The notes beneath the pieces were generated by a model. The model was not told the DNA's origin. It did no database searches and saw only the letters and a program-made list of their open reading frames with translations. The position numbers and the translations under genes are program-made. Shown here piece by piece: positions 3,668 through 29,155 of a stretch of 32,000 nucleotides of DNA. Origin of the DNA: Candidatus Saccharimonadota bacterium (GTDB lineage Bacteria; Patescibacteriota; Microgenomatia; UBA1406; GWC2-37-13); assembly GCA_016432445.1 (NCBI GenBank), contig CP066689.1, positions 60,001-92,000 on the forward strand. The letters are read 5' to 3'. Numbering within the stretch: the stretch's first letter is position 1; each line of letters starts with the position of its first letter.

Positions 3668-3762
3668 TCTAAATGTCAAAATCCAAATTTCAAATGTCAA
3701 ATATTTTTTAGAATTTAAGATTTTGGATTTGACCTGACATTTGAGCTTTGACATTTGGATTT
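3668..3762. repeat. heptamer-repeat hairpin element (AAATGTC / GACATTT word family)
   Basis: Left arm is aaatgtc|aaaatcc|aaatttc|aaatgtc|aaatatt (3671-3705). Inverted right arm is tttggat|ttgacct|gacattt|gagcttt|gacattt|ggattt. Lies between the VirB4-like stop and the PBP2 start. Confidence 0.8.
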
Positions 3763-3771
3763 ATCGTGTGT

Positions 3772-5526
3772 TTATTCTATCAAACTTTTTTCCTCCTCAG
3801 AAGCAATGACTTTAAATCCAACGTGAGACTGACCGGCAAAAAATAATCCTTCTCCAACCCCAGCCGATAACAAGAAATGCTTTTCTCCGCCTGTCAGGTA
3901 AAATGTTTCGGTGATCTTATCAACCGCCGCAGTTGACTGCTTTAGAATAATCTGCAAACTGGAATTAGTGATAATAGCTTTTCCTTCCTGCGTTGACAGA
4001 AAATCTTCAACGTCTTGAGTAATTGTAGTTAACCCCAGCAAATATTTGCGGGCGCGCTTGGCAAAATTAAAAAGATAATTGCCTGAGTCTTTATGTTTGA
4101 TTAAATACCACGCCTCATCAACAATTAAAACTCTTTTTTTCTTTTCACGCCTTACCTTATTCCAGATGTAATCTAAAACAACGTACATGGCCACCGGCCT
4201 TAAGTTTTCCTCCAAATCCCTAATACCAAAAACCGTAAATGGATTTTTAATATCAAAGTTTGATTGCTGATTAAAAATGCCTGAAGCTGAACCTTTAACG
4301 AATTTCTCCAGCCGGTCGCCCAGTTCTTTTGATTCTGGTGTTTCCATCCCCAATAATACTTTATAAAGATCCTCTAGAAGCGGCGGCTGCGTTTTAAAAG
4401 TCTCAGGATCCTGAGTGATGCCTTTTTGGCGGTAGGTCAAGACCAATGCCCGATCAAGAAGAGCATCCTGGGCCGGGACCAAATCACCCATAATTACCCT
4501 CATTAATGAATGCAGATTTAAGATTTTATTCTGCAGTTCATCAGGCTCAGGATCAGCGGTTGCTAAATCAAAAGGATTAATTTTATACTGAGATGCCCCT
4601 GAAAATTCTACAAACTCTCCACCCATTGAACCTGTTAATTTTTTATACTCATTCTCAGGGTCAATGATCATCACATCAGTACCCATCATCAGCAGTCTTG
4701 ACGACTCAAGTTTGACTAAAAAGCTTTTCCCTCCTCCTGATTTTCCTAAAATAACTGAGTTGGCATTCTCAAGAGTAAACCGGTCAAAGATAATAAGTGA
4801 TCCGTCATGCTGATTTAATCCATACATAATTCCTTCGTTTTTTGTAAGAGATGCCGTTGAAAAAGGAAAAGTCGTAGCTAAAGATGTTGTGTCCATATTG
4901 CGCCACACTGAAAGTTTGTCATAAAACATAGGTAAGGTTGATTTAAATCCTTCTTCCATCTGCAAAGTTGCTTGTTTAGCAATAATAAGAAGTGAGGCTA
5001 AACTTGAGTCAATCTGTTTGCTTAACTGATTTAACTCATCAAGACTATCAGCCGGAATTGTGATATAAAGTCCAAACTGAAAAAATCTTTCCGCTCCTTT
5101 GGCAAGTTCAGCCTGCAAGGCTAAAGCATCATCAAGGGCTACCTGTACTGTCGGGTCAACTACCTTCCCCGCCTTCATATCAGTTTCAATAGTCGCTTCC
5201 ATCTCGGCAATCTTGCGTTTCAAATCTTCAAGTACTGTTTTCGATTCGGTTGGATAAATATACATTGAGATATAAAGAGGATGATCAAAAGTAATAAGAG
5301 AATAAAGCCAGTTGGCTGAAACATAACGGGGGTAGCCTACGACATACAAAGTTTTGTAATATTTATCATCAATTTTAAGGTAGTTGAAATCAACTTCAAT
5401 AAAAGAAGGCGCAATAATATCTTTGATACTGACTGATCCTTTAGCCACTACCTCGGCCACGCTTTGAGATCCGCCCGCAACAGCCGAACCATTTGATTTT
5501 GTTTTTGGTTTAAATAAACCTAGCAT
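3772..5526 (-). CDS. VirB4/TrbE-like type IV secretion ATPase
   Basis: Walker A GKSGGGKSF and Walker B VLIVDEAW. N-terminal region is typical of the VirB4 family (YYKTLYVVGYPRYVSANWL). The track start at 5553 is a TTG inside the repeat element; the ATG at 5526 (MLGLFKPK) is preferred. Confidence 0.8.
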   Translation of the reverse strand: MLGLFKPKTKSNGSAVAGGSQSVAEVVAKGSVSIKDIIAPSFIEVDFNYLKIDDKYYKTLYVVGYPRYVSANWLYSLITFDHPLYISMYIYPTESKTVLEDLKRKIAEMEATIETDMKAGKVVDPTVQVALDDALALQAELAKGAERFFQFGLYITIPADSLDELNQLSKQIDSSLASLLIIAKQATLQMEEGFKSTLPMFYDKLSVWRNMDTTSLATTFPFSTASLTKNEGIMYGLNQHDGSLIIFDRFTLENANSVILGKSGGGKSFLVKLESSRLLMMGTDVMIIDPENEYKKLTGSMGGEFVEFSGASQYKINPFDLATADPEPDELQNKILNLHSLMRVIMGDLVPAQDALLDRALVLTYRQKGITQDPETFKTQPPLLEDLYKVLLGMETPESKELGDRLEKFVKGSASGIFNQQSNFDIKNPFTVFGIRDLEENLRPVAMYVVLDYIWNKVRREKKKRVLIVDEAWYLIKHKDSGNYLFNFAKRARKYLLGLTTITQDVEDFLSTQEGKAIITNSSLQIILKQSTAAVDKITETFYLTGGEKHFLLSAGVGEGLFFAGQSHVGFKVIASEEEKSLIE

Positions 5527-5530
5527 AATT

Positions 5531-5654
5531 AAATTTAAAAATCCAAATGTCAAAGCTTAAATGTCAAACCTGCCTGCCGGCAGGCAGGTCAAATCCAAAA
5601 TCTTAAATCCTAGAAAATGTTTGACATTTGAAATTTGGATTTTGACATTTAGAA
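5531..5654. repeat. heptamer-repeat hairpin element with central 22-nt GC palindrome
   Basis: AAATCCA/AAATGTC words, then acctgcctgccggcaggcaggt (5568-5589), then inverted TTTGACA/TTTGGAT words. Its last 22 nt (5633-5654) are identical to 13899-13920. Confidence 0.8.
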
Positions 5655-5656
5655 CT

Positions 5657-6313
5657 TTAACCATTAGTTAATATTGTATCGGTATAACTCTCAACCGGTG
5701 CTAACTGTTTCCCAGTTGCAGAGATATTGTAAAGATTATAAAAAAGGTCAGTAAGTTCTTGTTTCTGCAATACTGTCGCTCTTAAACCAACCTTAGCCAA
5801 AAGCCTTAAAAGGTGATCACGTTTTGGATAAAGTGATGTTTTAGCACGACTAATCACATACTCTTTATTTAATCCTTTGGTATTAACTCCTGATACTCCC
5901 ATCTCCAAAGGCGAGAAAGGAACTGCAAAAAAAAATCTTTTTTCTAAAACCGTGTTTTTTTTAACTACATTTTTAATAAATTCCTGATAGCTTAATAGTC
6001 TTTGTTTCATAAGATCATTATGCGAAGTATTAATCTTTCCCTGCAGATAATCTATGTAAGATGAAACATCCATGCGCTTGGAAAGAATCAATATCTCAAC
6101 CGGAAATGAGAGAGAATTTAAAAGACTGGCATAAGAATAAATCATTGAAGCCTGCTCTTCTTGAGACAAGAGCCAGAAGTTTACTGCCCCAACCTCAATA
6201 ACAATTACTGCTGAAGAATCTTTCAAAAGCAAAATATCATCTTTAATCTCTTCTATCTCAATAAAATACTGTGTCGTTGACTTTACCGGTGATGTGGGCT
6301 TTTGTACTGGCAT
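5657..6313 (-). CDS. hypothetical protein, T4SS-cluster associated
   Basis: 218-aa ORF between the PrgI-like and VirB4-like genes on the same strand. No catalytic motif recognised. Confidence 0.5.
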   Translation of the reverse strand: MPVQKPTSPVKSTTQYFIEIEEIKDDILLLKDSSAVIVIEVGAVNFWLLSQEEQASMIYSYASLLNSLSFPVEILILSKRMDVSSYIDYLQGKINTSHNDLMKQRLLSYQEFIKNVVKKNTVLEKRFFFAVPFSPLEMGVSGVNTKGLNKEYVISRAKTSLYPKRDHLLRLLAKVGLRATVLQKQELTDLFYNLYNISATGKQLAPVESYTDTILTNG

Positions 6314-6319
6314 CTTTTT

Positions 6320-6386
6320 ATGATTTATGATTCACGATTTAAGATTCATGAATATTCTTGAATCCTGAATCATGAATCTTGAATCA
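6320..6386. repeat. heptamer-repeat hairpin element (GATTCA / TGAATC word family)
   Basis: Reads tgattta|tgattca|cgattta|agattca|tgaatat|tcttgaa|tcctgaa|tcatgaa|tcttgaa|tca, a perfect 7-nt phase. The two halves are reverse-complementary. Confidence 0.85.
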
Positions 6387-6394
6387 ATTTTGTT

Positions 6395-7297
6395 TTATAA
6401 CATTTCTTTCGAATAAAACTCAAAAGGATTGGGATTGTTTTCCTCAACCTTCAATTTCATTGTATCAAAAAAGTAACCGCCTTTTGGATCTTTTAGTTCA
6501 AATAAATACTCGCCTTCAGGCAGATTGTTATAGGTTGCAAAAACTCCGTGAGGATTAGTTTTTAATAATCTTAAAGTCTCGTTACTACCACCTTTTACAT
6601 AAATTAAAATACCGGGAAGCGGAATCTTTTTATTGTTTTTAACCAAACCAATAAAGAATGGCTGTTTGGGTTGACTCGAAGATACAGCCGGTACTGAAAG
6701 CGGCGTAGCATTAATAGTAGAGGCCGCCTGAGCCACAACAGGATTATCAGTTCTGGGTTGTGAGTTGTGAGTTGTGGGTTGTGAATTTTGTGTTGACTCA
6801 GAACCCACAACCCTTGACCCAGAACTATTTTGTAATTGATTCGTCGCTGTCTGCAATAATGTCTGCACTTGCTGTTTGTTATCGTTTGATGCTTGCTGGG
6901 GAGTTGAGCTAACAAGATATGCTGCTAGTTTTTCTTTGGACTCAATATGCGATATTATTTTATGAGGGTCTGAAACAAAATATAGATTTTGTAGAAAATA
7001 AAGAGGCTGATTATGTTTGTGATAAACATATTGAGTTGGAGATGTAAGTCTTTTTATAAGATTTTTAATCCAAACATCAAGAGGCCGATCATTTATCGGC
7101 ACCAAAGCTAAAGCTGCACCAAACAGTACAAAAATTACTCCTAAAATGATATTTAAATAAGGTATCGGAAAAATCATCCAGATAATAAAACCCACAGGAC
7201 CAAATACCAAAAAATACAAAAACTGCTTTAAGGTCATAAACCCAATTAGCTTAAACTCAAATGTAGTTATCTGACGAGGAACTGGATGCTGCTCCAT
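6395..7297 (-). CDS. PrgI-family-like membrane protein with C-terminal carboxypeptidase-regulatory-like beta domain
   Basis: The N-terminus MEQHPVPRQITTFEFKLIGFMTLKQF plus two TM helices matches my memory of PrgI-family proteins encoded next to VirB4. The C-terminus (GILIYVKGGSNETLRLLKTNPHGVFATYNNLPEGEYLFEL) looks like a CarboxypepD_reg fold. The start is moved to the ATG at 7297. Confidence 0.6.
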   Translation of the reverse strand: MEQHPVPRQITTFEFKLIGFMTLKQFLYFLVFGPVGFIIWMIFPIPYLNIILGVIFVLFGAALALVPINDRPLDVWIKNLIKRLTSPTQYVYHKHNQPLYFLQNLYFVSDPHKIISHIESKEKLAAYLVSSTPQQASNDNKQQVQTLLQTATNQLQNSSGSRVVGSESTQNSQPTTHNSQPRTDNPVVAQAASTINATPLSVPAVSSSQPKQPFFIGLVKNNKKIPLPGILIYVKGGSNETLRLLKTNPHGVFATYNNLPEGEYLFELKDPKGGYFFDTMKLKVEENNPNPFEFYSKEML

Positions 7298-7328
7298 GTA
7301 TTCAGTATATAATATGTAGCACAATATT

Positions 7329-7412
7329 TGATTTATGATTCAAGATTCAAGATTCACGAATAAAAATTAATAAACAAATAATGAAATTTCATGAATCATG
7401 AATCGTGAATCA
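7329..7412. repeat. heptamer-repeat hairpin element (GATTCA / TGAATC word family)
   Basis: Left arm tgattta|tgattca|agattca|agattca|cgaataa; right arm tcatgaa|tcatgaa|tcgtgaa|tca. The right-arm 24-mer at 7389-7412 recurs exactly at 17041-17064. Confidence 0.85.
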
Positions 7413-7419
7413 AGGCAGA

Positions 7420-8490: not shown

Positions 8491-8556
8491 CTATTACGAT
8501 ATCCTTTCCTTGTCCCGCGTATCCCGACTTAGTCGGGAGAAGTGGGAAGATTTTAT

Positions 8557-8585
8557 ACTATACCAAATAGCAGTTAAAAAAACAA
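8557..8585 (-). promoter_or_regulatory. candidate sigma70-type promoter of rpsA
   Basis: On the minus strand: TTGTTT, 17 nt, TATAGT, with a TGG extended -10. Followed by a leader hairpin (tcccgac tta gtcggga, 8522-8538) and an AAGGAAAGGA Shine-Dalgarno. Confidence 0.45.
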
Positions 8586-8712
8586 GAGAATTGTTCACAG
8601 CTTGTCGTTCACGGTTCACAGCAATAGAGCGAAAATGTTTGTTTCGAGCAATCGCTTGGGTCCCCTCTCAGGGTGAAGCGGCGAGAAACAAATATTGAGC
8701 GAAATTTGTGAA

Positions 8713-9752: not shown

Positions 9753-9913
9753 CTAATAAAACTTTTTAAACAGGATAAGAATAGTTATTTTTTGGCTTCC
9801 TGTCAATCTATATTAAGAATATCTTATTGTAACAATCTATATCAAATTTAGGCTTTGGAACAATATAATTAAAGAAGTGATGAGTTCTGGGTTCCGAGTT
9901 GTTGGTTTTGAGT

Positions 9914-10007
9914 AAAAAACACCTCGGCCTTCGGCAACTCCTCTTAATAAGAGGAGAATAATTCCCCTCTTGAAAGAGGGGTCCGGCCATTGGCCGGGGG
10001 GTGTTTT
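9914..10007. repeat. closed multi-hairpin element, copy 1 (fused to rny stop codon)
   Basis: Outer stem aaaacacc/ggtgtttt encloses hairpins ctcctct-taata-agaggag, cccctct-tgaa-agagggg and ccggcc-att-ggccgg. Same architecture as 12134-12263. Confidence 0.75.
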
Positions 10008-11475
10008 ATATTTTCGTTGTTGCCTCGGCTCGGGATTCACGGATGATGGTGATTTTAATTTGACCCGGGAAGACTTCAAATTTCTGTTCCAGTTCTTCCT
10101 TTATCTTAGCCGCCAGAACTGTCATATCATCATCGCTTATTTCATCCGCCTTAACCATAACTCTAAGTTCGCGTCCGGCCTGTAAGGCATAAGCATCTCT
10201 GACTCCTTTTTTAGTTTTGGCAACATCCTCAATTGTTTTGATTCTTTTTATGTATTCTTGCAAATCCTCATGTCTCGCTCCAGGTCTGCCCCCTGACACA
10301 GCGTCCGCAATATAAACTATTACCGCTTCAATTGAGGTAAAAGGAACATCTTCATGATGGGATGCCACACAGTCAATAACTTTTTGTGGGAATCGGTATT
10401 TTTTAACAAGTTCAACACCTAAATCAACATGCGAGCCCTCCTTATCGGCCACAATTTTACCGATATCGTGAAGTAAACAACCCAGTTTTACAATATTGAC
10501 ATCCGCTTTTAACTCATGAGCCAATGCTACTCCAATTCTTGTTTCTTCCAAAGTGTGAAGAATCATATTTTGGCCATATGAGTATCTGTATTTGAATCGG
10601 CCAAGCATCCGGGTAATCTCAGGGGGAAGGTTATAGATTCCCACCTTATGAACCATTTCCTCACCGGCTTTAAAGATTGCTTTTTCAATCTCCTCTTTTG
10701 TTTTATGAACTATCTCTTCAATACGCTGAGGTTGAATGCGCCCATCTTTGATTAATCTTTCCAAAGAAAGACGGGCAATTTCGCGACGGGTGGCATCAAA
10801 TGAAGAAATTTTAATTACACCTTCCTCTTCCAAATCAACATCAACTCCCGTGGCCAGTTCAAAAGCCCGGATGTTGCGTCCGTCTTTGCCGATAATCCTT
10901 CCTTTATAATCATCGCTGGGAAGAGAAACAACTGACAAAGTATACTCGGCCACATAATCAGTTGCCCCATAACGCATAGCATCAAGCAACATCTCTTTGG
11001 CTTTCTCATCTTTTGTTTGCTGTATCTCTTCTTCTGCCTGTTTTATTCTTTTGGCAACTTCCGCTTTTAATTTTTCTTCCCATCCTTGCAAAAGCAATGT
11101 CCGTGCTTGGTCTTTAGTCATTGCCGCTACTTTTTCAAGTTTTTGTAATATAGATTCCCTTTTCTCTTCAAGCTCCTTTTTAAGCTGTTCTGTCTGCTGT
11201 TTCTCCCTTTCTGCATTCTGTTTATCTTTATTCAGCTGATTTTCCTTATCTTCAAGCTGCTGTTCGCGGCGGGCTAATCTTTTGTCAACTTCTAAAGTAT
11301 CGGCAGTTAACTTGCGGGCTTCACGTTCTGCCTCTTGCTTGATCTTTAAAGCCTCTTCATTGGCTTTTAAAATAATCTCTTTTGATTCCTGCTTTACTTT
11401 TATAAGTTCATCCTGTTTCTCCTTTTCCTGTTCTTTTTTACTAAGAAATAGTTTTTTTAAAAATTGAGGTAACAT
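10006..11475 (-). CDS. rny: ribonuclease Y
   Basis: 489 aa. Has an N-terminal charged coiled coil, a KH domain (GRIIGKDGRNIRAFE) and an HD domain (LLHDIGK...ASHH). Confidence 0.92.
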   Translation of the reverse strand: MLPQFLKKLFLSKKEQEKEKQDELIKVKQESKEIILKANEEALKIKQEAEREARKLTADTLEVDKRLARREQQLEDKENQLNKDKQNAEREKQQTEQLKKELEEKRESILQKLEKVAAMTKDQARTLLLQGWEEKLKAEVAKRIKQAEEEIQQTKDEKAKEMLLDAMRYGATDYVAEYTLSVVSLPSDDYKGRIIGKDGRNIRAFELATGVDVDLEEEGVIKISSFDATRREIARLSLERLIKDGRIQPQRIEEIVHKTKEEIEKAIFKAGEEMVHKVGIYNLPPEITRMLGRFKYRYSYGQNMILHTLEETRIGVALAHELKADVNIVKLGCLLHDIGKIVADKEGSHVDLGVELVKKYRFPQKVIDCVASHHEDVPFTSIEAVIVYIADAVSGGRPGARHEDLQEYIKRIKTIEDVAKTKKGVRDAYALQAGRELRVMVKADEISDDDMTVLAAKIKEELEQKFEVFPGQIKITIIRESRAEATTKI

Positions 11476-11532
11476 AATCCATTTTTTTCTTGAAGAAAAA
11501 ATACGTTTATGGATACACTTATTTATTAAGTC

Positions 11533-11630
11533 AAAACGGGTGACGCGAGTTCAGGGCTCCCATTAGCATGGACCCCGACGTTTTGTCGGGGGAATCCTGA
11601 TGGGAAAAAACGAGCGGCAGGCCCCGTTTC
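11533..11630. ncRNA. candidate structured RNA / rny leader element (unclassified)
   Basis: GC-rich island in an otherwise AT-rich 280-bp ORF-free spacer. Nested pairings: aaacggg/cccgttt (outer), cccat/atggg, and ccccgac-5nt-gtcgggg (apical, 11573-11591). I could not match it to a known RNA family. Confidence 0.3.
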
Positions 11631-11755
11631 ATTCCTAATGATAAGAAGACGATTTAATAAATTTGTATTCATTCAATTCCCTCTTCAAGGAATTTTTAAT
11701 ATTGTCCCTATTTTACTCCCTCACTCAAAAATCTTCAAATGAATTTCGAGCGGAA

Positions 11756-12133
11756 CTAATCTCTGTTGGATGTTTTATGCATAGTAATCCAGTTTTTAAT
11801 AACAACAATTACTCCATCCATGTCATTTTTAACTTGATCGTTAGTAAAACGTAAAATATTTATTCCCAACTTATAAAGCTGATCTTGTCTCTTCTCATCG
11901 TAATTACCTTTTAACTCATGACTATCTCCATCAATCTCGATGGCTAGTTTTAGTAAATTGTTGTAAAAATCAACAATATAATTTCCTAAAGGTTTCTGCC
12001 GGTTAAAATCGATACCCAAAACCTGTTTATTTTTCAACCTTTTCCATAAAATAATTTCTGCAACTGTACTATTTTTTCTTAAATGAGAAGCAATCTTTTT
12101 TAGTTTTGGATTATAAGGTATTGTATATGACAT
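11756..12133 (-). CDS. DUF559 (Vsr-like restriction-endonuclease-fold) domain protein
   Basis: 125 aa with the pattern LRKNSTVAEIILWKRLKNKQ..G..F.RQKP.G.YIVDFY......AIEIDGDSH......D..R...L...G...LRF.N..V typical of DUF559. Confidence 0.8.
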   Translation of the reverse strand: MSYTIPYNPKLKKIASHLRKNSTVAEIILWKRLKNKQVLGIDFNRQKPLGNYIVDFYNNLLKLAIEIDGDSHELKGNYDEKRQDQLYKLGINILRFTNDQVKNDMDGVIVVIKNWITMHKTSNRD

Positions 12134-12263
12134 AAAAACACCCCCCGCCTAAATGCGAGATCTTTTGGCGGGGTACTCCTCTTGGAAAGAGGAGACATAC
12201 AAACACTCCTTAGATTCCCCTCTTCGCAAGAGGGGTGGCCAGCTGAGCTGGCCGGGGTGTTTT
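12134..12263. repeat. closed multi-hairpin element, copy 2 (between recX stop and DUF559 start)
   Basis: Outer stem aaaacacccc/ggggtgtttt encloses ccccgcc...ggcgggg, ctcctct-tggaa-agaggag, cccctct-tcgca-agagggg and ggccagc-tga-gctggcc. Confidence 0.75.
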
Positions 12264-12744
12264 ATCCTTCCTCCATCTCTTCAATCACTTTTTTAGCAAT
12301 TGAAAAAGAAAAACCGCGGCGCATAAGAAACTGAGCGGCTTTTTCAAAACGGGTTTTTTTATCGAAATGATTAAAGTGAAACCAGCGGTTATGAAGAGCT
12401 TGTTTAGCCAGATCTTCTTGATTTGAAGGATTTTCTGTAAAGAATTCATCAATTATATCTTTCTCCACGCCTGCCTTTAGGAGTTCCTGTTTCAAAGCAA
12501 ACTCGCTTTTGGGTTTAACAATGTTTCTTGTAACTACAAAAGACTCAACAAATTTTTTATCATTTATGAGTCCTTCTTCTTCAAGTAAAGAAAGCGCCTC
12601 TTCAATCACTTCTGGCGACCAATGGTAAAACTTCTCAGATTTTTTACTAAGATAAGAGACAACCTCTTTTCGCGTGCGGGGCCGGAATTTAAGATAAAAA
12701 TAAGCGCGGTTAAGAGCTTTTTGAACGTGATCTTGCCTGTTCAT
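12262..12744 (-). CDS. recX: recombination regulator RecX
   Basis: 160 aa directly downstream of recA. Helical-repeat sequence typical of RecX ([26 protein letters not shown]...). Overlaps the recA 3' end by 35 nt. Confidence 0.8.
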
Positions 12745-18131: not shown

Positions 18132-18156
18132 AATTAACGACATTTCCCCGCATGAA

Positions 18157-19811: not shown

Positions 19812-20355
19812 CGCCTTCATCAGAGCTTACTAAAAAACCATTAAGTTCCTTCGCCAAAGCAATAAGCTCAAAATCAGCTAAGCTATCAATAAATCCAAAG
19901 CGGGTAGCTTGTCGATAACGCAAGCGAAAGTGTTTTACGATTGGTCCTATTTTCATCTCAAACTCTTTTTTTCCTAAATTAGGTATCCCAGCCAAAGTTT
20001 GAGCTGCTTGCTTTATTTCTTCTTCAGCTATTGTTTGACCACGGTAATTTCTGCTTCTTACCTCATCAATCATCTGACCTACCAAAGCTGCAGAAAGACT
20101 AACACTATGCAAATCAGGCGACTTAACTGTAATTGTGGACAAAAAATCTTTGATGAAAGGCTGTTCCTTATCTTCAAAAAAACTTAAAAACTCATCAATT
20201 ACTTTTGGAGGTGCAAAAAACTCATGTCTTTCTTCTTTCTTTAGTCTTTTCATGGCTTGAGTTACAGCCACAACAACCTCTTCGGTTTTTTTACCCATAC
20301 CCAAACCTGGCTCCATGTTGAAAAATAAATTGGTATCCAAAACGTACTTTTCCAT
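19735..20355 (-). CDS. PIN-domain protein
   Basis: MEKYVLDTNLFFN has the typical PIN N-terminal acidic motif, and there is a later SSDEGV acidic motif. The ATG at 20355 is preferred over the track start at 20373. It may belong to the archaeal RNA-ligase-partner-like PIN group, but I cannot verify that. Confidence 0.5.
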   Translation of the reverse strand: MEKYVLDTNLFFNMEPGLGMGKKTEEVVVAVTQAMKRLKKEERHEFFAPPKVIDEFLSFFEDKEQPFIKDFLSTITVKSPDLHSVSLSAALVGQMIDEVRSRNYRGQTIAEEEIKQAAQTLAGIPNLGKKEFEMKIGPIVKHFRLRYRQATRFGFIDSLADFELIALAKELNGFLVSSDEGVIRWARLFGVKEISAPLFGKKMIGS

Positions 20356-20377
20356 ATTAGTATAATACCACAATAAT

Positions 20378-20465
20378 GATTTATCGATCTTTGATCTGAG
20401 ATCTTAAATTTTGGATATTGAATGAATTATTTTGCTTCTAAGATTAAAGATTTAACATCTAATCA
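20378..20465. repeat. heptamer-repeat hairpin element (GATCT / AGATT word family)
   Basis: gatttat|cgatctt|tgatctg|agatctt|aaatttt|ggatatt|gaatgaa|ttatttt|gcttcta|agattaa|agattta|acatcta. Confidence 0.7.
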
Positions 20466-20615
20466 CTTGTTTTTGTTCAACATTTTTCGGCTAAATGCGA
20501 TTTTTAGTGGTTGATAAGAAAACTTAAGGCTAGATTTAGTAGCTGATCTATTTTTATTATATTATGACCTCTTGTAAACCCACAATTAGTGGTATAAATT
20601 TTATTCTGGCACAAT

Positions 20616-21062
20616 ATGTATTGTATTTTTTGCGGGCACACCAGCACTGATGTTATAGAAACCAGGCTTTCAGAAGACGGAAGCGCCATAAGAAGAAGGC
20701 GGAACTGTCCTAAATGCCAAAGGCGGTTTACCACCTATGAAAGAATCGAAGAGCTTCCGATACTGGTTATTAAGCGCGACAATACTAGAGAAAGATTTGA
20801 AAGAGAAAAGCTGAGAAGAGGTCTTTTAAAGGCGGCTGAAAAAACTACAGTCTCAGCAGATCATATTGAGAAGATATCCTCAGAGATTGAATCCGAGCTA
20901 AAACAGCAAAGTTCGACCGAGGTTGAGAGTAATCTTATCGGCAACCTGGTTGCCAAAAAGCTTAAAAAACTGGATAAAGTCGCTTATATCCGTTTCGCTT
21001 CGGTTTTTAAAAGGTTTGTCGATGTTGAGGAGTTTGAAAAAGAACTGAAAAAATTATTATAA
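20616..21062 (+). CDS. nrdR: transcriptional repressor NrdR
   Basis: The Zn ribbon MYCIFCGH...CPKCQRRFTTYE followed by an ATP-cone region (ILVIKRDNTRERFEREKL) matches NrdR. Confidence 0.9.
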   Translation: MYCIFCGHTSTDVIETRLSEDGSAIRRRRNCPKCQRRFTTYERIEELPILVIKRDNTRERFEREKLRRGLLKAAEKTTVSADHIEKISSEIESELKQQSSTEVESNLIGNLVAKKLKKLDKVAYIRFASVFKRFVDVEEFEKELKKLL

Positions 21063-21133
21063 AAATAATACCTTTTTATTACAAAATGCTATCTGAATTG
21101 TTATAAAAAATGTTATAATTTCATCATAAAATT

Positions 21134-23497
21134 ATGAAGCTTCAAGGAGTATCAGAAAAGGTTTTTTTAGATCGCTACGCTTTAAAAGATAGCTTAGGAA
21201 ATCCTATTGAAAAAAGTCCTGAAGAAACCTGGCACCGCGTAGCCAAAGCTGTAGCTAAATTAGAAAAAAAAGAGGTTCAGAAAAAATGGGAAAAAGACTT
21301 TTACAAAGCCATGCAGGACTTCAAATATATCCCCGGAGGAAGAATCTTAGCCGGCGCCGGCACTGGTTATTCTGTAACTTATTACAACTGCTTTGTTATC
21401 CCTAGTCCTAAAGATGCCAGAGGCGGCATTCTTGATACTTTAAAACAGATGGTTGAGGTTATGGCCCATGGCGGCGGAGTAGGCATTAATATCTCATCTT
21501 TAAGACCCCGAGGAGCTAGGGTTAAAAAAGTTAATGGTTTCTCTTCAGGTCCTTTAAACTGGGCTGAGCTTTTTTCTCTAGCTACCAAAGACATTATTCA
21601 ACAAGGAGGGACAAGACGGGGAGCTTTGATGCTTATGTTATGGGACTGGCACCCTGATATTGAGGAGTTTATAACTGTCAAGCAAGATTTATCAAGAATT
21701 AACGGCGCCAATCTTTCCCTTTGTATCTCAGATAAATTTATGGAGGCAGTAGAGAAAGATGCGGACTGGCCTTTAGTCTTTCCTGATATTGATGACCCTG
21801 AGTATGATATGAAATGGGAAGGCGATCTTGAGGTTTGGAAAAGTTTAGGGAAAAAAGTAATTGTTCAAAAAGTAGTTAAAGCCAGAAAAATTTGGGATCT
21901 TATTGCAGAGGGAGCTTGGAAATCAGCTGAACCTGGCGTAGTTTTTATGGAAAGATATAACAAAATGTATAACAACTATTATTGGAATCGCATCAACTGC
22001 GTTAATCCTTGCGGTGAAGAGGGTTTGGCGCCTTGGGGCGTATGTAATTTGGGATCTATCAACCTTTCAGCTTTAGTCAAAGGCAATAGTGTTGATAAAA
22101 AAGGAAAGTTTGATTTTGCTACTTTAAAGAAAATAATCCGGGCAGCTGTCCGTCTTCAAGATAATGTTATCGATATGGATCCTTATATATTTGAGGGGAT
22201 GAGAGAAACCCAACTTGAGGGAGAAAGAAGAATCGGATTAGGAACAATGGGTCTTGGAGATACCTTAATCAAACTTCACTTACGATATGGTTCAGATGAA
22301 TCACTGAAATTTATTGAAAAGGTTTACAAATTAATAAGAGATGAAGCTTATAAAGCTTCATCTGAAATTTCCAAAGAAAAAGGACCTTTTAAAAAATTTG
22401 ATAAAGAGCTTTATCTTAAAGGCAAATTTGTCAGCCAGCTTCCTTCAGATGCTAAAACCGATATCGGCAAATATGGCATCAGAAACTCGCTGCTTTTAAC
22501 CCAAGCCCCAACCGGATCAACATCACTTATGGCCAGCACAACCTCAGGGATTGAACCTGTCTTTGAGTTTGAGTTTATACGAAGAGACCGCTTGGGCGAA
22601 CATGTATTAAGACATCATTTATATGATCAATGGTATAAGAAACATGAGGAAGAAATTAAGCAGGGAAAAGTGAAAAAACCTGATTGGTTCGTCTCAGCCA
22701 ATGAACTTTCACCTGAAGATCATGTAAAAGTACAAGCTGTTATTCAAAAATATGTTGATGCCTCTATCTCAAAAACAGTTAATGCCCCCAAAAACCACAC
22801 AGTTGAGGATGTTAAAAAGCTTTATAACTTAGCCTACAAACTTGGTCTTAAAGGTATCGCTTATATGCGTGAAGGATCAAGACCAGGGGTGCTTGAGCGG
22901 AAAGAAGAGAAAAAAGAAGAACAGCCAAAACAACCTGAGATTGCTGTTAAGCCACGCCCGATGGTTGTTCAAGGATCAACGTATAAAATTAATACGCCAG
23001 TTGGCACTGCCTTTATTACGGTTAATACTAACGGCAGCAATGAACCATTGGAAGTATTTATTAATGTTGGGAAGGCAGGAACAGATGTTTACGCTATGGC
23101 TACAGCTTTAGGAAGGGTTATCTCAGTAGCTTTGCGTTTCTCCTCTCATCTATCTCCTAGGGAAAGAGTTAAAGAAATCATTGATCAGCTGGAAGGGATA
23201 GGCGGCGCCAGAACTTTAGGCTTTGGAAAGGAAAAAATCCGCAGTCTGCCTGACGCTGTGGCTAAAGTGCTTTCAATGCATTTTAAATTTAACGGCTACG
23301 CTGAAAAACACGCGGCTGACCAGATGAAACAAGGTGCAAAGCTAGTTAGTGAAGAGATACAACCGCCTTTAATCCAGGCACAGGAACCAGCCATAAGAAC
23401 CGGCCTTTTTGATCTTTGCCCCGGCTGTGGAGAAGCAACTTTAGCTCATGAGGAAGGCTGCGCTAAATGTTATAGTTGTGGTTATTCCGCGTGCTGA
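21134..23497 (+). CDS. nrdJ: adenosylcobalamin-dependent (class II) ribonucleotide reductase
   Basis: 787 aa with YNCFV, the active-site region NPCGEE.L.PWG.CNLGSINL, TQAPTGSTS, and the C-terminal Cys-rich tail CPGCGEATLAHEEGCAKCYSCGYSAC typical of class II RNRs. Confidence 0.9.
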   Translation: MKLQGVSEKVFLDRYALKDSLGNPIEKSPEETWHRVAKAVAKLEKKEVQKKWEKDFYKAMQDFKYIPGGRILAGAGTGYSVTYYNCFVIPSPKDARGGILDTLKQMVEVMAHGGGVGINISSLRPRGARVKKVNGFSSGPLNWAELFSLATKDIIQQGGTRRGALMLMLWDWHPDIEEFITVKQDLSRINGANLSLCISDKFMEAVEKDADWPLVFPDIDDPEYDMKWEGDLEVWKSLGKKVIVQKVVKARKIWDLIAEGAWKSAEPGVVFMERYNKMYNNYYWNRINCVNPCGEEGLAPWGVCNLGSINLSALVKGNSVDKKGKFDFATLKKIIRAAVRLQDNVIDMDPYIFEGMRETQLEGERRIGLGTMGLGDTLIKLHLRYGSDESLKFIEKVYKLIRDEAYKASSEISKEKGPFKKFDKELYLKGKFVSQLPSDAKTDIGKYGIRNSLLLTQAPTGSTSLMASTTSGIEPVFEFEFIRRDRLGEHVLRHHLYDQWYKKHEEEIKQGKVKKPDWFVSANELSPEDHVKVQAVIQKYVDASISKTVNAPKNHTVEDVKKLYNLAYKLGLKGIAYMREGSRPGVLERKEEKKEEQPKQPEIAVKPRPMVVQGSTYKINTPVGTAFITVNTNGSNEPLEVFINVGKAGTDVYAMATALGRVISVALRFSSHLSPRERVKEIIDQLEGIGGARTLGFGKEKIRSLPDAVAKVLSMHFKFNGYAEKHAADQMKQGAKLVSEEIQPPLIQAQEPAIRTGLFDLCPGCGEATLAHEEGCAKCYSCGYSAC

Positions 23498-23500
23498 TAT

Positions 23501-24034
23501 ATGACAATTTATACCAAAACAGGGGATAAAGGTAAGACTTCTCTTTTTGGAGGTAAGCGGGTTTTAAAATGCGATTGCAACATTGAAGCTTATGGATCTA
23601 TCGATGAACTTTCAAGTATTATAGGGCTCATTATTTCTAAAGAAAAAAATAAAGATAAAAAACAGCTGCTTACCGATGTACAGAAAGATTTTTATCAAAT
23701 CATGTCGTCAATTTCAGGCGCAAATGTTAATTTAGCCTCGCTTCTTAAGAAGATAAACTTTTTTGAACAAGAAATTAAAAATATAGAATTAAGACTGCCT
23801 GTTCTAAATCGTTTTATTTTGCCTGGTGGCACTGAAATAGCGGCATTACTTCATATTTCCCGAACTGTTTGCCGAAGAGCCGAAAGAGATGTCGCTCGCT
23901 ATTTTGAAACAGAAAAAAAAGATCACAAAATACAAAATTATAAGTCATTTATTCTTCCTTACTTAAATCGGCTTTCTGATCTTTTATTTATAATGGCAAG
24001 AGAAGCTAACAAAAATAATGAAGTAACAGTTTAA
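23501..24034 (+). CDS. PduO-type ATP:cob(I)alamin adenosyltransferase
   Basis: N-terminus IYTKTGDKGKTSLFGGKRV, then GSIDELSS..G, F.LPGG......LH..RTVCRRAER and YLNRLSDLLF. Confidence 0.85.
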   Translation: MTIYTKTGDKGKTSLFGGKRVLKCDCNIEAYGSIDELSSIIGLIISKEKNKDKKQLLTDVQKDFYQIMSSISGANVNLASLLKKINFFEQEIKNIELRLPVLNRFILPGGTEIAALLHISRTVCRRAERDVARYFETEKKDHKIQNYKSFILPYLNRLSDLLFIMAREANKNNEVTV

Positions 24035-24042
24035 ACTACGAA

Positions 24043-24062
24043 CCTGCCTGCCGGCAGGCAGG
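24043..24062. terminator. 20-nt perfect GC palindrome flanked by CTACGAA heptamers, candidate terminator of the nrdJ-pduO unit
   Basis: cctgcctgccggcaggcagg lies 9 nt after the adenosyltransferase stop. Flanking words are ctacgaa | ccacgaa|ctaccaa|ctacgaa. Confidence 0.45.
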
Positions 24063-24087
24063 CCACGAACTACCAACTACGAACATG

Positions 24088-24116: not shown

Positions 24117-24138
24117 AAGAAAGCATTTTTAAAAATTA

Positions 24139-24308
24139 GGCTTGGTTTAACCACAATAAGGTTAATTGGGAATACGGTGTGAATCCGTAACTGTGCCGCA
24201 GCGGTAAAAGTTAGTCGCGAGTCGTTAGTCATGAGTCATTAAAAATGACTCTCAAGACTAAAGACTCAAGTCTCAAGACTAAACTTGAGTCCGAAGACCG
24301 ACCAAGCT
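24139..24308 (+). promoter_or_regulatory. cobalamin (B12) riboswitch
   Basis: The core GGUUAAUUGGGAAUACGGUGUGAAUCCGUAACUGUGCCGCAGCGGUAAAAG parallels E. coli btuB GUUAAUAGGGAAUCCAGUGCGAAUCUGGAGCUGACGCGCAGCGGUAAGG. The 3' B12-box GAGUCCGAAGACCGACC fits rAGYCMGgAgaCCkGCc. The P1 halves are ggcttggt / accaagc. Confidence 0.85.
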
Positions 24309-24332
24309 CTCGACCCCGAGCAGGGATTATTT

Positions 24333-25640
24333 ATGTTATCGGCCGAAATCTGTAAGCCTTCATCATCTTTTCTTCCTAGCAGAAATGCTACAGAAAGAAC
24401 AAATACAATCGACGTTCCATTAAAAGAAGAGTCGATTTTTAATTATTACTCAATCACCAACGAAGCCAAATTCCTCAAAGAAAACCCTCAATTGCCTCAC
24501 GAGCAAAAAGAATATTATCTTAAAGAAAACGTTTTAAGATTCTTGGGGGAGTTTGCCGGAAAAGTTCCTTACACTAAAATAACCTACATTCTAAGAGATG
24601 ATGGATTATATTACGGAGATCTAAAAGCCATGGACAATTATCGCCAGACTGCTATAATGCCTGAAGCCACCGATCGGGAAAAAGCCGAAGGGGAAGGATT
24701 TGAAAAAGTTGAGGAAGGATTACTTCAACCGGCAAACACCGCTTATTGGATTTCTCCTCCTAAGATTGCCAATTATGGATTTGTTTTCTACTTCACTAAA
24801 GAACTCCAATACGATAAAAAATTAAAAGGTTACAAGGTTACTGAATATATTTTAAGATATCCTGAAAAATTGGAAGATGTTTCAAAAAGTAACCAAATTG
24901 CTTATGGAATAGAAAGTAATGGAAATAACAAACATTACCGGAAAAACGCCAATGATTTTATCAGAGACCCTTTTTTTGATTTATCCAATCCAAATTCAAA
25001 TCTTAAAAAGATATTAAATCTTGTTGATGTTGATGATGAAAAGATATTTCAATCCCAACAGTTTGAAAAACAGGTTGAAGAAAAACTTTCAGGATTAATT
25101 GATCAATACACCAAAACTATTATGATACTATCAAAATATGAACCTTATGAACCAGAATATAATCAAATGTGTAACCACGCTGAAAGTTTACTAACTACTA
25201 TTTACAACAGTGCACGCGTCATTAAGCATATTGTTGAAGAACCTGAAAATCACAATACTGAGAGTTCTGTTTTTGAAAGAGCCAGCAATAAAGAACTTAT
25301 GGCTTACTTTTCACAAAAAAAAGCCACCGTAACTGGAGGAGGCAGTTGTCCTGTTACAAACAAAAGAAATCAACCTGCCTATTTATCATCTTTTAACGTT
25401 TATGCCCTAATGAATACCGGAAATCCCATTGAAAGTTTTATTCATGATCTTGATGAACTTTTTTCAGATAATAAATTTTTAGAATCTGATAGCGAAAACG
25501 AACACTATGAAGATTATGAATGTCCTCATTGCCACGAAACATTGTCAGGTGAAAAGAAAAATGATCCAAGTTCCTGGAGAAAAACATGCGACCACTGTGG
25601 TGAAGATGTCAGATGTAATAAAGAAACGTTAGCTGCCTAA
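24333..25640 (+). CDS. hypothetical protein with C-terminal CxxC...CxxC zinc ribbon, riboswitch-controlled
   Basis: Long ORF with no TM segment or signal peptide. The C-terminus is YECPHCHETLSGEKKNDPSSWRKTCDHCGEDVRC. The track start (TTG 24285) lies inside the riboswitch, so the in-frame ATG at 24333 is preferred. No family recognised. Confidence 0.6.
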   Translation: MLSAEICKPSSSFLPSRNATERTNTIDVPLKEESIFNYYSITNEAKFLKENPQLPHEQKEYYLKENVLRFLGEFAGKVPYTKITYILRDDGLYYGDLKAMDNYRQTAIMPEATDREKAEGEGFEKVEEGLLQPANTAYWISPPKIANYGFVFYFTKELQYDKKLKGYKVTEYILRYPEKLEDVSKSNQIAYGIESNGNNKHYRKNANDFIRDPFFDLSNPNSNLKKILNLVDVDDEKIFQSQQFEKQVEEKLSGLIDQYTKTIMILSKYEPYEPEYNQMCNHAESLLTTIYNSARVIKHIVEEPENHNTESSVFERASNKELMAYFSQKKATVTGGGSCPVTNKRNQPAYLSSFNVYALMNTGNPIESFIHDLDELFSDNKFLESDSENEHYEDYECPHCHETLSGEKKNDPSSWRKTCDHCGEDVRCNKETLAA

Positions 25641-27399: not shown

Positions 27400-27406
27400 A
27401 CACATG

Positions 27407-28531
27407 TTATTCATCTTCTTCAGGGCTAATCAAGTTAAATACCGAAACTAAAGTCTTCCAGTCTAACGATTCAGATTCAATCTCCCTAACCATTTTTAAA
27501 AGTTGTACAAACTTATCTCTGTTTACATTCAGTTTGTCGGCTACTTCTTCTTGAGAAATATTACCGCTTATAGAGTATATCCAATAATAAAAAAATGCTT
27601 CTTTTTTTTCTAAAGTTAAATAATGCTTGTTAATTACGTCTATTGCTTGCTTAACTAATGATGAATATCCCTCTAATGTTTTAGGTAAGTTAAAAGTAAA
27701 ATTGGTTAAAGGATTGGTTAAAACGTCGTGAATAAATTGTTTTTCTGCTATAAAATTTGTTGTAAACCATTCGTCATCAACCTCCTGCCCAAATCTATTC
27801 AATGTTACATTTGTTTTAGTTCCGTCTGTAAATGCTTTCAAAAATGCTTCTATTTTTATCTTATTGGTAAAGTCATCGGGTAATTCTCGATGATTTTGAG
27901 TATAAATTTGTTGTAACTCTTCCCAAAAAAATAAATCATTTCCGATTATTCCTGATTCTAGAAGTTCTTTTGCAAATAAACAGGCTTGTTTTTGTTGAGG
28001 AGTTTGAGCATCAACACTTTTCCCATGTTTTACTAAAGCGGCTTTACGTTTCATCTCTGAAATTTCTTCATCGGTTAAAGAAGCTGAAGGAAGGTGCCTT
28101 AAAGCTGCCCTAATTTTACTTTTGCTAAGATCTGTATAAATGGCCACCATATCTCCCCTTGAAGCACCTCGAGCAACTAAAGGAGCAAGTTTCTTTTGCG
28201 TAGTAGCTCTTTTTTTATTCTCTTCGACCATTTTTTCAACTTTTCTTTTTCTTTGCTCTTCATATTCTGGATCATGCCAAAACCGATCACTTCTAACTTT
28301 ATTAGCGGCTGTAACTCTTTTCCTATAATCTTCATTATCCCACGCTTCTCTTGCAGCTTCAGTCGATACTTCTCTAAGGTGAGGATTTTCTGCATAAGCT
28401 CTCTTTACACCAATTGAGGTTAATTTACGAGCCTCGGGAGTTCTAGGATGATTTTTATAATACTTTTTTAAGGCTGTTGAAATATTTGCATTTCTGGAAG
28501 AAAATTGTCCTTGCTCTATTGATTTTACCAT
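27407..28531 (-). CDS. hypothetical DNA-binding protein (NUMOD3-like N-terminal repeats, C-terminal HTH-like segment)
   Basis: N-terminal repeats of the type ...PEARKLTSIGVKRAYAENPHLREVSTEAAREAWDNEDYRKRVTAANKVRSDRFWHDPEYEEQRKRKV. The C-terminus ISQEEVADKLNVNRDKFVQLL resembles an HTH. No nuclease domain seen. Confidence 0.4.
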   Translation of the reverse strand: MVKSIEQGQFSSRNANISTALKKYYKNHPRTPEARKLTSIGVKRAYAENPHLREVSTEAAREAWDNEDYRKRVTAANKVRSDRFWHDPEYEEQRKRKVEKMVEENKKRATTQKKLAPLVARGASRGDMVAIYTDLSKSKIRAALRHLPSASLTDEEISEMKRKAALVKHGKSVDAQTPQQKQACLFAKELLESGIIGNDLFFWEELQQIYTQNHRELPDDFTNKIKIEAFLKAFTDGTKTNVTLNRFGQEVDDEWFTTNFIAEKQFIHDVLTNPLTNFTFNLPKTLEGYSSLVKQAIDVINKHYLTLEKKEAFFYYWIYSISGNISQEEVADKLNVNRDKFVQLLKMVREIESESLDWKTLVSVFNLISPEEDE

Positions 28532-28625
28532 ATCTCAAAGCTCTATTTTAAAGAATTAAATCTTTATAATCAAGGTTGAGTTTTTCCTCTGCTAAAGATA
28601 TACTTTACCTGTTACAAGCAATAAT

Positions 28626-29057
28626 ATGAAACTTAAAATCTATACCGACGGAGGGTCGTTAAATAATCCTGGGGAAGCGGCTATAGCTTACGTTATCTAT
28701 CTCAATGATGAATGTGTTTTAAAATTCTCTAAAAGGATTGGAGTCGCCACTAATAATTTTGCCGAATACACGGCCTTAATTGAAGCTTTAACAGCAGCTA
28801 AAGATTTTATTAAAAAATATCCAATCAAATCAATCAATGTTTTTTCCGACTCTCAACTCATGGTAAGCCAGCTATGCGGCCTTTACAAGATTAAAAACTC
28901 ATCAATAAGAGATCTTATTATGAATATAAGAGTACTTGAAGGAGAGATAAATTTACCAATAGTCTACGCTCACATTCTAAGAGAAAAAAACCAAATAGCA
29001 GATTCACTAGTTAAACTAGCTTTTAAATCCAAATATCAAATTTCAAATGACAAATGA
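28626..29057 (+). CDS. rnhA: ribonuclease HI family protein
   Basis: DEDD-type motifs: IYTDGGS (D), NNFAEYTALIEAL (E), VFSDSQL (D), NQIADSL (D). The last ~11 codons are encoded by the heptamer repeat. Confidence 0.8.
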   Translation: MKLKIYTDGGSLNNPGEAAIAYVIYLNDECVLKFSKRIGVATNNFAEYTALIEALTAAKDFIKKYPIKSINVFSDSQLMVSQLCGLYKIKNSSIRDLIMNIRVLEGEINLPIVYAHILREKNQIADSLVKLAFKSKYQISNDK

Positions 29058-29155
29058 AATCCAAAGTTTAAAATCTAAATTTAAAAATTTTTTTCACTCG
29101 TTATTTGGATTTGGGATTTAATTTGACATTTGTTATTTTGATTTTGACATTTGAG
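29024..29155. repeat. heptamer-repeat hairpin element (AAATCCA/AATGACA vs TTTGACA/TTGGATT words) between convergent rnhA and dnaN
   Basis: aaatcca|aatatca|aatttca|aatgaca|aatgaaa|tccaaag ... ttatttg|gatttgg|gatttaa|tttgaca|tttgtta|ttttgat|tttgaca|tttgag. Confidence 0.75.

Follow-up and report, generated by a model that had tools for sequence, protein, structure and literature searches.

A 32,000-nt stretch of the genome of a Candidatus Saccharimonadota bacterium (GenBank contig CP066689.1, positions 60,001 to 92,000; hereafter the window) contains hairpins, between and within genes, in which each arm is made up of some 4-6 degenerate 7-nt units in tandem. These elements are the same kind of repeat as the short tandemly repeated repetitive sequences (STRR), or heptanucleotide hairpins, of cyanobacteria and the stems of 23S rRNA intervening sequences (IVS). 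The full-length form, found at positions 15968-16453, carries a TIGR02436/PF05635 gene in its loop; the common form consists of the bare arms, and we propose that the two are a longer and a shorter version of the same element. The explanation we favour, which in our judgement has about an even chance of being correct, is that the elements are palindromic repeats of an IVS-like kind, selfish or near-neutral, which are tolerated where spacers are transcribed and are probably cut by RNase III. Repeats of this kind are already known; what is new here is their host, a member of the Candidate Phyla Radiation (CPR), and their AT-rich words.

The window has a G+C content of 35% and a gene set typical of the CPR, encoding PBP2, a VirB4/TraG-like ATPase, PrgI, an S1-domain protein, DUF5667, RNase Y, RecA/RecX, UbiA and a class II ribonucleotide reductase, together with dnaN and dnaA. 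Arrays were scored as 28-nt segments with at least 17 of 21 matches at a lag of 7 nt, with local dinucleotide shuffles as the control. By this measure 86 lag-7 segments were observed, as compared with a shuffle mean of 0.23 and a maximum of 7, and the identical criterion returned no arrays in the window at lags 6 and 8-12. Consistent with this, Tandem Repeats Finder (TRF) reported periods of 7, 14 and 21, and intergenic autocorrelation at these three lags was 0.349, 0.336 and 0.326 against a background of ~0.29; the coding sequence of the window had no excess of autocorrelation at period 7. An earlier reading of this DNA, made from the sequence alone (the original prediction), had described a family of hairpins built from tandem heptamers, and the periodicity on which it rested does exceed that of shuffled sequence, with the excess restricted to lag 7.

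The heptamer words form families with several copies each. The segments 3655-3775 (reverse complement; copy A1) and 5520-5665 (copy A2) are a single ~95-nt element, ~95% identical with the loop included, in opposite orientations. They differ by a clean 20-nt indel carrying the palindrome CCTGCCTGCCGGCAGGCAGG, which is in 5520-5665 and not in 3655-3775. The 22-mer at 5633-5654 is repeated exactly at 13899-13920, as had been noted. Family B (TGATTCA) is present at 6320, 7329 and 17029, and reading of the sequences shows a 23-mer, CATGAATCATGAATCGTGAATCA, common to 17029-17064 and the right arm of 7329-7412; family C (TCGATNT) is present at 15968, 16421 and 17458, and family D at 6749 and 9881. 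The words had been described as locus-specific, which is wrong in part: they are shared among multiple copies, and A1 and A2 are one element. A search with a 20-mer taken from the family A terminus matched 91 metagenome contigs, whose G+C content is 25-52%; in most of them the 20-mer forms the 3′ end of a ~90-135-nt hairpin with the same layout at an unrelated locus; it had no match in viral contigs. The same 91 contigs contain 101 lag-7 arrays, with many other heptamer words, versus at most 13 arrays at any other lag.

The gene in the loop of the full-length element (15993-16361, minus strand) encodes a 122-aa four-helix-bundle protein of the family TIGR02436/PF05635, the '23S rRNA IVS protein' (TIGR02436, 131 bits; PDB 2gsc, E 5e-16; Pfam PF05635). 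Its neighbours encode GPI and an amine oxidase, and there is no reverse transcriptase among them. Identity with Avd, the accessory protein of diversity-generating retroelements (DGRs), was considered and rejected, the score against NF033474 being 41.6 bits, under the cut-off of 80. The 19-mer TTCGATATTCGATTTTCGA is found with 0-2 mismatches in all four arms of 15968-16453 and 17436-17500 (0 occurrences expected by chance), and 17436-17500 is, to judge from its sequence, the ORF-less counterpart of 15968-16453. The suggestion that the elements are a self-propagating class of repeat is therefore borne out by near-identical copies at separate loci, by a 19-mer that joins ORF-bearing and arms-only forms, and by the 91 contigs with family A.

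The association of this gene with inverted arrays was seen in three independent series. Series 1 consisted of PF05635 ORFs, four from the window and 80 related loci (described below) and nine from the metagenome loci, 11 of them non-redundant. All 11 were bracketed by inverted short-period arrays, with a flanking inverted-repeat score of at least 12.5, a score that 6% of 336 size-matched control genes reached (Mann-Whitney p = 2e-8). For series 2, viral contigs were searched with a five-protein alignment, yielding four loci; the three further cases, in viral contigs of 56-64% G+C, were all flanked likewise. Series 3 covered plasmids of cultured organisms, where 35 of 36 records of the TIGR02436/PF05635 family are cyanobacterial. 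Ten of these plasmid genes were looked at, and eight lie between inverted arrays, seven of heptamers and one (Gemmatirosa) of 8-nt units; the arrays beside the remaining two lack the inversion. Two relatives of the DGR-Avd type in phages had no flanking inverted arrays. The gene-array association spans contigs of 31-64% GC plus cultured cyanobacteria.

In 50 kb of the Nostoc punctiforme plasmid pNPUN01, nine lag-7 arrays make up four inverted pairs, two of which share a word and two of which have words of their own, and a 32-mer is common to the gene-bearing and nearby arms-only copies. A search of the accessible literature for a link between S23p/four-helix-bundle genes and heptamer arrays in general found none, which does not prove its absence; the link of solitary TIGR02436/PF05635 genes to inverted short-period arrays appears to be unreported. 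On two other plasmids, Pseudanabaena galeata pPg_01 (locus L216; L numbers denote the sequences compared with the window) and Anabaena sp. 90 pANA02 (L217), the four-helix gene and its arrays sit between cas6 and cas4 in a CRISPR-cas operon. The Pseudanabaena gene has ~15 AAAAGCT units upstream and ~10 AAAAGCC units downstream.

The VirB4-like protein of the window has relatives, 65-89% identical, in 80 species-level genomes; where the names of these genomes are informative, nearly all read Candidatus Roizmanbacteria or Microgenomates, and the host of the window is itself a Candidatus Roizmanbacteria. The 1.27 Mb of these 80 related Roizmanbacteria loci contain 79 lag-7 arrays, and 45, 20, 6, 2, 1 and 0 arrays at lags 5, 6, 8, 9, 10 and 11. 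Although the gene order S1-PrgI-hypothetical-VirB4 is conserved in the relatives, with median spacers of 62, 6 and -26 nt, hairpins occur at these junctions in scattered species only, with words differing in each. The spacer orthologous to 7327-7414, for example, holds hairpins of other words in L005, L023, L066 and others. Given that the hairpins at orthologous junctions are scattered and different, we conclude that the elements have been gained and lost; given the median spacers of 6 and -26 nt, we further conclude that two of the three junctions ancestrally had no spacer. Both presence/absence and turnover of words, for which the original prediction had proposed comparing orthologous spacers, are thus seen among relatives. 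As for the number of units, the four assemblies of the window strain are identical, and between species it is entire elements that differ. Arrays of 8-9-nt units were also seen, at ~4010-4090 and ~4740-4815 of L005 and in the S1-PrgI spacers of L060 and L077. Each of these units contains a palindrome, GTTNAAC or GTTAAC (e.g. AGTTGAAC CAGTTAAAC TAGTTCAAC), and the arrays form hairpins with a signal at lag 8 or lag 9, not lag 7.

Each locus in the window was folded separately, with the fold score expressed as z (Table 1). Eight elements counted as clear heptamer hairpins, with z values of -4.3 to -6.4. Hairpin arms are 27-43 nt long, with a median of 4.7 units (interquartile range 3.9-6.1), the lower bound of arm length being set by the detection threshold.

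Table 1 Heptamer elements of the window. Coordinates are window positions; z, fold score
Element	Position	Strand	Remarks
Family A hairpin (CAAANNN / NNNTTTG)	3666-3764		Between VirB4-like (3772-5527, -) and PBP2 (2014-3663, -)
Family A hairpin, second copy	5528-5656		z -5.60; nested 20-nt palindrome CCTGCCTGCCGGCAGGCAGG at 5569-5588
Family B hairpin (TGATTCA / TGAATCA)	6318-6388		z -6.04; TRF period 7
Family D hairpin (GTTGTGA / TCACAAC)	6745-6830		z -6.37; within PrgI-family ORF
Family B hairpin	7327-7414		z -6.10; between S1-domain protein and PrgI-family gene
Direct array, GTTCACN x4	8591-8622		z -1.48; no heptamer hairpin
Family D-like direct array	9881-9913		TRF; z -0.41, no hairpin
Family A one-sided array, right-arm type	13841-13920		z -3.23; short complementary arm, 12-bp stem
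Inverted family C arrays (TCGATNT) around gene	15968-16453	-	Arrays 15968-16000 and 16421-16453; inverted-repeat score 18.0
Family B half-array (TCATGAA x4.4)	17029-17064		TRF score 55; z -1.4, no hairpin
Family C arms-only hairpin	17436-17500		z -4.36; within amine-oxidase ORF
Weak GATCT-type arrays	20378-20465		z -0.67; no significant hairpin
Direct CTACGAA array split by 20-nt GC palindrome (24043-24062)	24036-24083		z -3.2; palindrome alone folds
Heptamer hairpin (GTTAGTC / GACTAAN)	24205-24288	+	z -5.21; within cobalamin riboswitch 24126-24320
Family A-like hairpin	29022-29157		Moderate, z -2.80; between convergent RNase H (+) and dnaN (-)

The anatomy originally described, in which tandem degenerate heptamers are followed by their complements, holds, as does the position of the elements at gene ends. 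Nine loci had been listed as hairpins. Four of them fold strongly (3668-3762, with z -4.26; 5531-5654; 6320-6386; 7329-7412) and 29024-29155 moderately, but 13841-13920 is one-sided with a short stem, and 8591-8622, 20378-20465 and 24036-24083 form no heptamer hairpin. The list had lacked the elements at 24205-24288, 6745-6830 and 17436-17500 and the inverted arrays 15968-16000 and 16421-16453. That such elements fill most of the longer spacers was an overstatement: among 21 spacers of at least 59 nt, ~7 hold a clear hairpin, or ~11 if bare arrays are counted. At 6318-6388, between the PrgI-family gene and a gene for a 218-aa protein, the 7-nt phase is unbroken through the dyad, and the hairpin at 3666-3764 ends 4 nt ahead of the PBP2 start codon. 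Several genes (with starts at 3663, 6313 and 7297) have a start codon a few nucleotides from the foot of a hairpin and no recognisable Shine-Dalgarno sequence, as in GACATTTAGATTAAATG before PBP2; translation initiation at these starts must cope with, or depend on, the stem.

Elements also lie inside coding and structured sequences. The hairpin at 6745-6830 encodes amino acids 158-183 of the PrgI-family protein, 26 residues of a variable linker that are extra relative to six PrgI-family orthologues. The half-array at 17029-17064 sits in the amine-oxidase ORF, and with the hairpin at 17436-17500 the length of this ORF is unchanged relative to PDB 5mog. The hairpin at 24205-24288 is the variable peripheral arm of the cobalamin riboswitch (Rfam RF00174, 64.2 bits), between the conserved core and the B12 box, and the conserved core flanks it on both sides. 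The riboswitch directly follows genes for NrdR, a B12-type ribonucleotide reductase and cob(I)alamin adenosyltransferase, and is upstream of a 451-aa ORF (24285-25640) without a Pfam match.

For genomic context, we catalogued 81 non-identical hairpins across all sources. Co-directional, convergent and divergent genes flank 54, 7 and 4 of them, as compared with 607, 115 and 227 baseline spacers, such that divergent spacers are depleted in hairpins about four-fold. The median hairpin starts 5 nt past a stop codon and ends 8 nt ahead of the next start. A sense-strand U-tract follows 4 of the 54 hairpins between co-directional genes, and a terminator scan of the window flagged none of the heptamer hairpins; what the same scan did flag were other hairpins, GC-rich and with U-tracts, that follow RNase Y and RecX at 9964-9998 and 12143-12254. 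We conclude from the lack of U-tracts that the heptamer hairpins are not the intrinsic terminators of this genome, and the terminator role suggested earlier does not stand. The hairpins of L048-L057 look like a canonical terminator core to which heptamer arms have been added. Membership of a known RNA family was likewise rejected, since Rfam 15 gave only the cobalamin riboswitch at gathering score; matches of the heptamer hairpins were to microRNA-precursor models only, all sub-threshold. A promoter role for units that contain TTGACA was rejected because promoter-like sites were not in excess (45, with 42.7 expected). The family A 20-mer occurs 20 times in sense and 22 times in antisense orientation. 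Counts of G:U pairs on the two strands (sense, 112; antisense, 96) gave no sign of RNA-level selection, as judged by the asymmetry of G:U and A:C pairs on the sense strand. Nothing points to an RNA function that depends on orientation.

Under the explanation that we favour, copies would land in, or be copied into, places that can accommodate a long stem-loop without harm, such as spacers within co-directional runs of genes, a riboswitch's peripheral arm and linkers of proteins that are disordered. Units of 7 nt would be gained and lost through slippage, with the arms staying roughly complementary, and copies that are transcribed would fold into long imperfect duplexes. By analogy with IVS, RNase III would cut these duplexes, which would make the elements tolerable and would incidentally split operon transcripts.

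Several observations weigh against this explanation. We caught no insertion event, target-site duplication or empty site, and no target-site duplication was evident at the ends of family A copies in the window and in metagenomes; the sole clean comparison, of A1 with A2, bears on the nested palindrome, not on the hairpin. No activity as a nuclease, as a transposase or in mobility of any other kind is known for the partner four-helix protein. No RNase III gene was found in the window, and among all loci one was found by motif only in L152. For the hairpins of L048-L057 and the riboswitch, growth in place is as good an explanation as insertion, and the depletion of divergent spacers, although compatible with avoidance of promoters, would be equally compatible with a selected role in transcripts. 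The order of units appears to be mirrored between arms (arm-to-arm score 15.1, versus 13.0 with units shuffled; p = 6e-8), a weak result that is biased by the selection of hairpins on score. There was no covariation in 15 copies of family A, in which the pairs are invariant and the right end was fixed by the search pattern, hence this comparison is uninformative.

The strongest competitor, which we nevertheless hold to be unlikely, is that the elements are selected at the RNA level, as intercistronic stem-loops that set mRNA stability, processing sites or translation starts in operons. Such a role would resemble that of repetitive extragenic palindromes (REP) and bacterial interspersed mosaic elements (BIME), or of the RNase III sites between the early genes of phage T7. 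Strong folding argues for selection, as do near-confinement to transcribed spacers, where the elements abut stop and start codons, with the scarcity in divergent spacers; several are directly ahead of start codons without a Shine-Dalgarno sequence, and the L152 hairpin is just upstream of the RNase III gene. However, such elements are also found within ORFs and in the arm of a riboswitch, most relatives have no spacer at all at the same junctions, and neither orientation, nor G:U pairing, nor the uninformative covariation comparison gave a sign of selection. The L152 hairpin (3371-3457, TGTTACN words), which directly precedes the RNase III gene (~3500-4200), is a single anecdote. The rnc gene of E. 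coli is autoregulated via a leader stem.

We think it rather unlikely that the elements are a pure by-product of mutation and immobile, with replication slippage biased to 7 nt lengthening short hairpins and intrastrand template switching copying one arm to the other, such that every locus would build up a word set of its own in place. Orthologous spacers with different words are consistent with such a process, as are the heptamer arms that extend a terminator core in L048-L057 and the riboswitch arm. In addition, the article PMC4692102 cites Mrazek (2007) for an over-representation of heptameric simple sequence repeats in many bacteria, with polymerase slippage proposed as the cause, and the copy number of a Coxiella heptamer varies among strains (PMC4990558). 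Immobile by-products would not be expected to include near-identical copies, loops included, at different loci, nor a single ~120-nt family at unrelated loci in contigs of 25-52% GC. The 19- to 32-mers shared by pairs of ORF-bearing and arms-only copies, and the array in the amine-oxidase ORF with no change in its length, argue against it as well.

A further proposal, compatible with selfish or near-neutral repeats and not exclusive of them, is that the arrays are putative binding sites, as RNA, ssDNA or dsDNA, for a pentameric four-helix protein, with the ~five 7-nt units of an arm matching five subunits. TRAP or Hfq rings that read spaced repeats would be the model for such candidate recognition. 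The association of gene and array in the three series (11/11, 3/3 and 8/10) and the median of 4.7 units per arm are consistent with this proposal, and the subgroup of the protein co-varies with the word family, five of six proteins of the 'SIGANY' type being within CAAANNN arms. The closest solved relative, 2gsc, was deposited with five chains and is described as a homopentameric toroid (PMC4990558). We regard the proposal as improbable, given that 32 kb hold many word families versus one such gene, that the lower bound of arm length comes from the detection threshold, and that the S23p ORF of Coxiella is probably untranslated (PMC4990558).

There is next to no prospect that the elements are artefacts of assembly or sequencing: assemblies do break at the repeats, with all four Logan contigs stopping at window position 9978 and one stopping at 13839, adjoining an array, but the four independent assemblies, from four SRA runs, are 100% identical to window 9978-23753 with the repeats included, and like elements recur in 80 related metagenome-assembled genomes, 91 metagenome contigs and finished plasmids of cultured cyanobacteria.

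The first catalogues of heptamer repeats date from about 1990, and we know of no accepted function or origin for them. Leptospira is said to have 23S rRNA intervening sequences with an S23p ORF (Ralph & McClelland 1993). The original prediction held that inverted heptamer-array hairpins had not been described; they have in fact been published for Nostoc P6b (PMC3488679), Xanthomonas (PMC4692102) and Geobacter metallireducens (PMC2700814), and we saw them directly in N. punctiforme pNPUN01. In P6b of the Nostoc tRNA-Leu intron, degenerate heptanucleotides pair into a hairpin with a variable copy number and with inserts that are not heptamers (PMC3488679). The window elements are similar in that the heptamers of one arm pair with complementary heptamers of the other, in that arrays contain foreign inserts (here CCTGCCTGCCGGCAGGCAGG at 5569-5588), and in that one hairpin lies in a structured RNA, the peripheral arm of the riboswitch; P6b differs in length by the number of units. 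Like the window, the pNPUN01 replicon has several classes of word. In contrast to Nostoc, the host belongs to the CPR and its genome is small and AT-rich, the words (CAAANNN, TGATTCA, TCGATNT) are AT-rich, and the elements fill the spacers of tightly packed gene runs, reaching stop and start codons.

The IVS of Coxiella burnetii is described as selfish; RNase III cuts its 28-bp terminal stem, and it contains an S23p ORF together with 2-4 tandem GACAGAT heptamers whose number varies among strains (PMC4990558). As in 23S IVS, which are likewise regarded as selfish, terminal inverted repeats of the window elements form a long stem, and the loop optionally holds a PF05635/TIGR02436 gene. The tandem heptamers of the Coxiella IVS are at the junction of stem and ORF, whereas the arms in the window are heptamer arrays throughout; moreover, the window contains no rRNA, and the copies are in mRNA spacers, ORFs and a riboswitch. 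RNase III cleavage, an experimental result for IVS, would extend to the window hairpins by analogy.

Xanthomonas genomes each have ~185 (GGGANTN)n arrays, mostly of ~four units, 89-93% of them intergenic and near the end of the upstream gene, with 70-75 convergent pairs near gene ends (Rehm et al. 2015, PMC4692102). These too are degenerate heptamer arrays, and their convergent pairs could form stem-loops, but each genome has one G-rich word, studied as a former of G-quadruplexes; the window has many AT-rich words, for which G-quadruplexes are impossible. Heptanucleotide families lie between and within genes in Geobacter metallireducens (PMC2700814), and TAACTGA direct repeats occur in Beggiatoaceae, cyanobacteria and Bacteroidetes (PMC4679880). 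Like the window elements, both are sets of 2-6 heptamers, mostly intergenic near start codons and also within genes; in these families, the same word is found across distant phyla. TAACTGA sets are direct and orientation-specific, with one inverted among 170, in contrast to the window elements, which are mostly inverted pairs with no preferred orientation.

The REP/BIME elements and REPINs of enterobacteria and pseudomonads resemble the window elements as short multi-copy intergenic palindromes in co-directional and convergent spacers, in either orientation, and in being regarded as non-autonomous partners of a gene, RAYT. However, REPs are single palindromes of 20-40 nt with a conserved GTAG/CGTC head, no 7-nt periodicity and no diversity of words, and RAYT is a known transposase, whereas the window gene encodes a four-helix bundle; no RAYT gene was seen among the genes of the window. 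Miniature inverted-repeat transposable elements likewise have dispersed arms-only copies alongside a longer gene-bearing copy. They differ in that the arms here are tandem arrays, not unique terminal repeats, with no target-site duplication seen, and in that the gene-bearing form is without a known transposase. We put forward a broader scheme as speculation, unlikely to be right in full, that STRR, the convergent arrays of Xanthomonas, the stems of 23S rRNA IVS and the CPR hairpins are one cross-phylum class. The complete form would bear the TIGR02436 gene, bare hairpins would be arms-only derivatives, and the pentameric protein would read arrays of ~five units, as RNA or ssDNA, and so aid spread or processing.

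Heptamer repeats are thus abundant in a CPR bacterium, and spacers filled with repeats are notable given the small, compact genomes of the CPR. Such repeats occur in cyanobacteria, Xanthomonas, Geobacter, Beggiatoaceae and many other genomes. The four-helix link ties them to rRNA intervening sequences, for which excision by RNase III is experimental, and it names a candidate partner protein, one amenable to purification and to testing in tractable organisms, N. punctiforme among them. The elements also break metagenome assemblies and insert into ORFs and riboswitches, and annotation pipelines could take them for terminators or small RNAs.

The perfect 20-nt palindrome CCTGCCTGCCGGCAGGCAGG is present three times in the window, at 5569-5588, 18111-18130 and 24043-24062 (0 expected). 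It is also found in two metagenome contigs, including L093 (235-254), and in 35 IMG/VR contigs of 38-68% G+C (L176-L210), several of which have 2-4 copies. Many copies lie between heptamer units (L176, L178, L181, L184, L194, L197, L199, L201), and sister copies of an element differ in its presence, A2 having it and A1 not, and L093 having it and L105 not. The palindrome resembles a very small dispersed insert with loops or heptamer arrays as its targets. Elhai et al. (2008) reportedly described small dispersed repeats located within heptamer arrays. At L200 2239-2330, ARAGORN calls a 92-nt tRNA-Met whose long variable arm is the palindrome (2284-2303). Its context also looks tRNA-like by eye at L177 8616, and at L207 515 it is in a position like that of a D-loop, again by eye; ARAGORN made no call at either.

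Other structured sequences in the window lie outside the heptamer elements. A GC-rich multi-hairpin repeat, with no Rfam match, is present at 9900-10005 and 12134-12261. Its modules are CCCCTCTT..AAGAGGGG, CTCCTCTT..AAGAGGAG and GGCCAG..CTGGCC, bracketed by AACACCCC...GGGGTGTT, and the terminator-like U-tract hairpins that follow RNase Y and RecX lie within it. The end shared by all four Logan contigs, 9978, is within the copy at 9900-10005. The spacers 8491-8712 and 11476-11755 are strongly structured (z -3.4 and -3.6), with GC-rich cores and no Rfam match, and may represent RNAs that lack annotation or leaders belonging to the genes for S1 and RNase Y. A 68-nt stretch, 9778-9845, is 93% identical to L027 3672-3739. 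The dnaN and dnaA genes (29157-31689, minus strand) have a 311-nt upstream spacer (31690-32000), and the window therefore probably abuts the replication origin. The segment 31663-31755, comprising the start of dnaA and upstream spacer, is 86% identical to L017 3364-3457.

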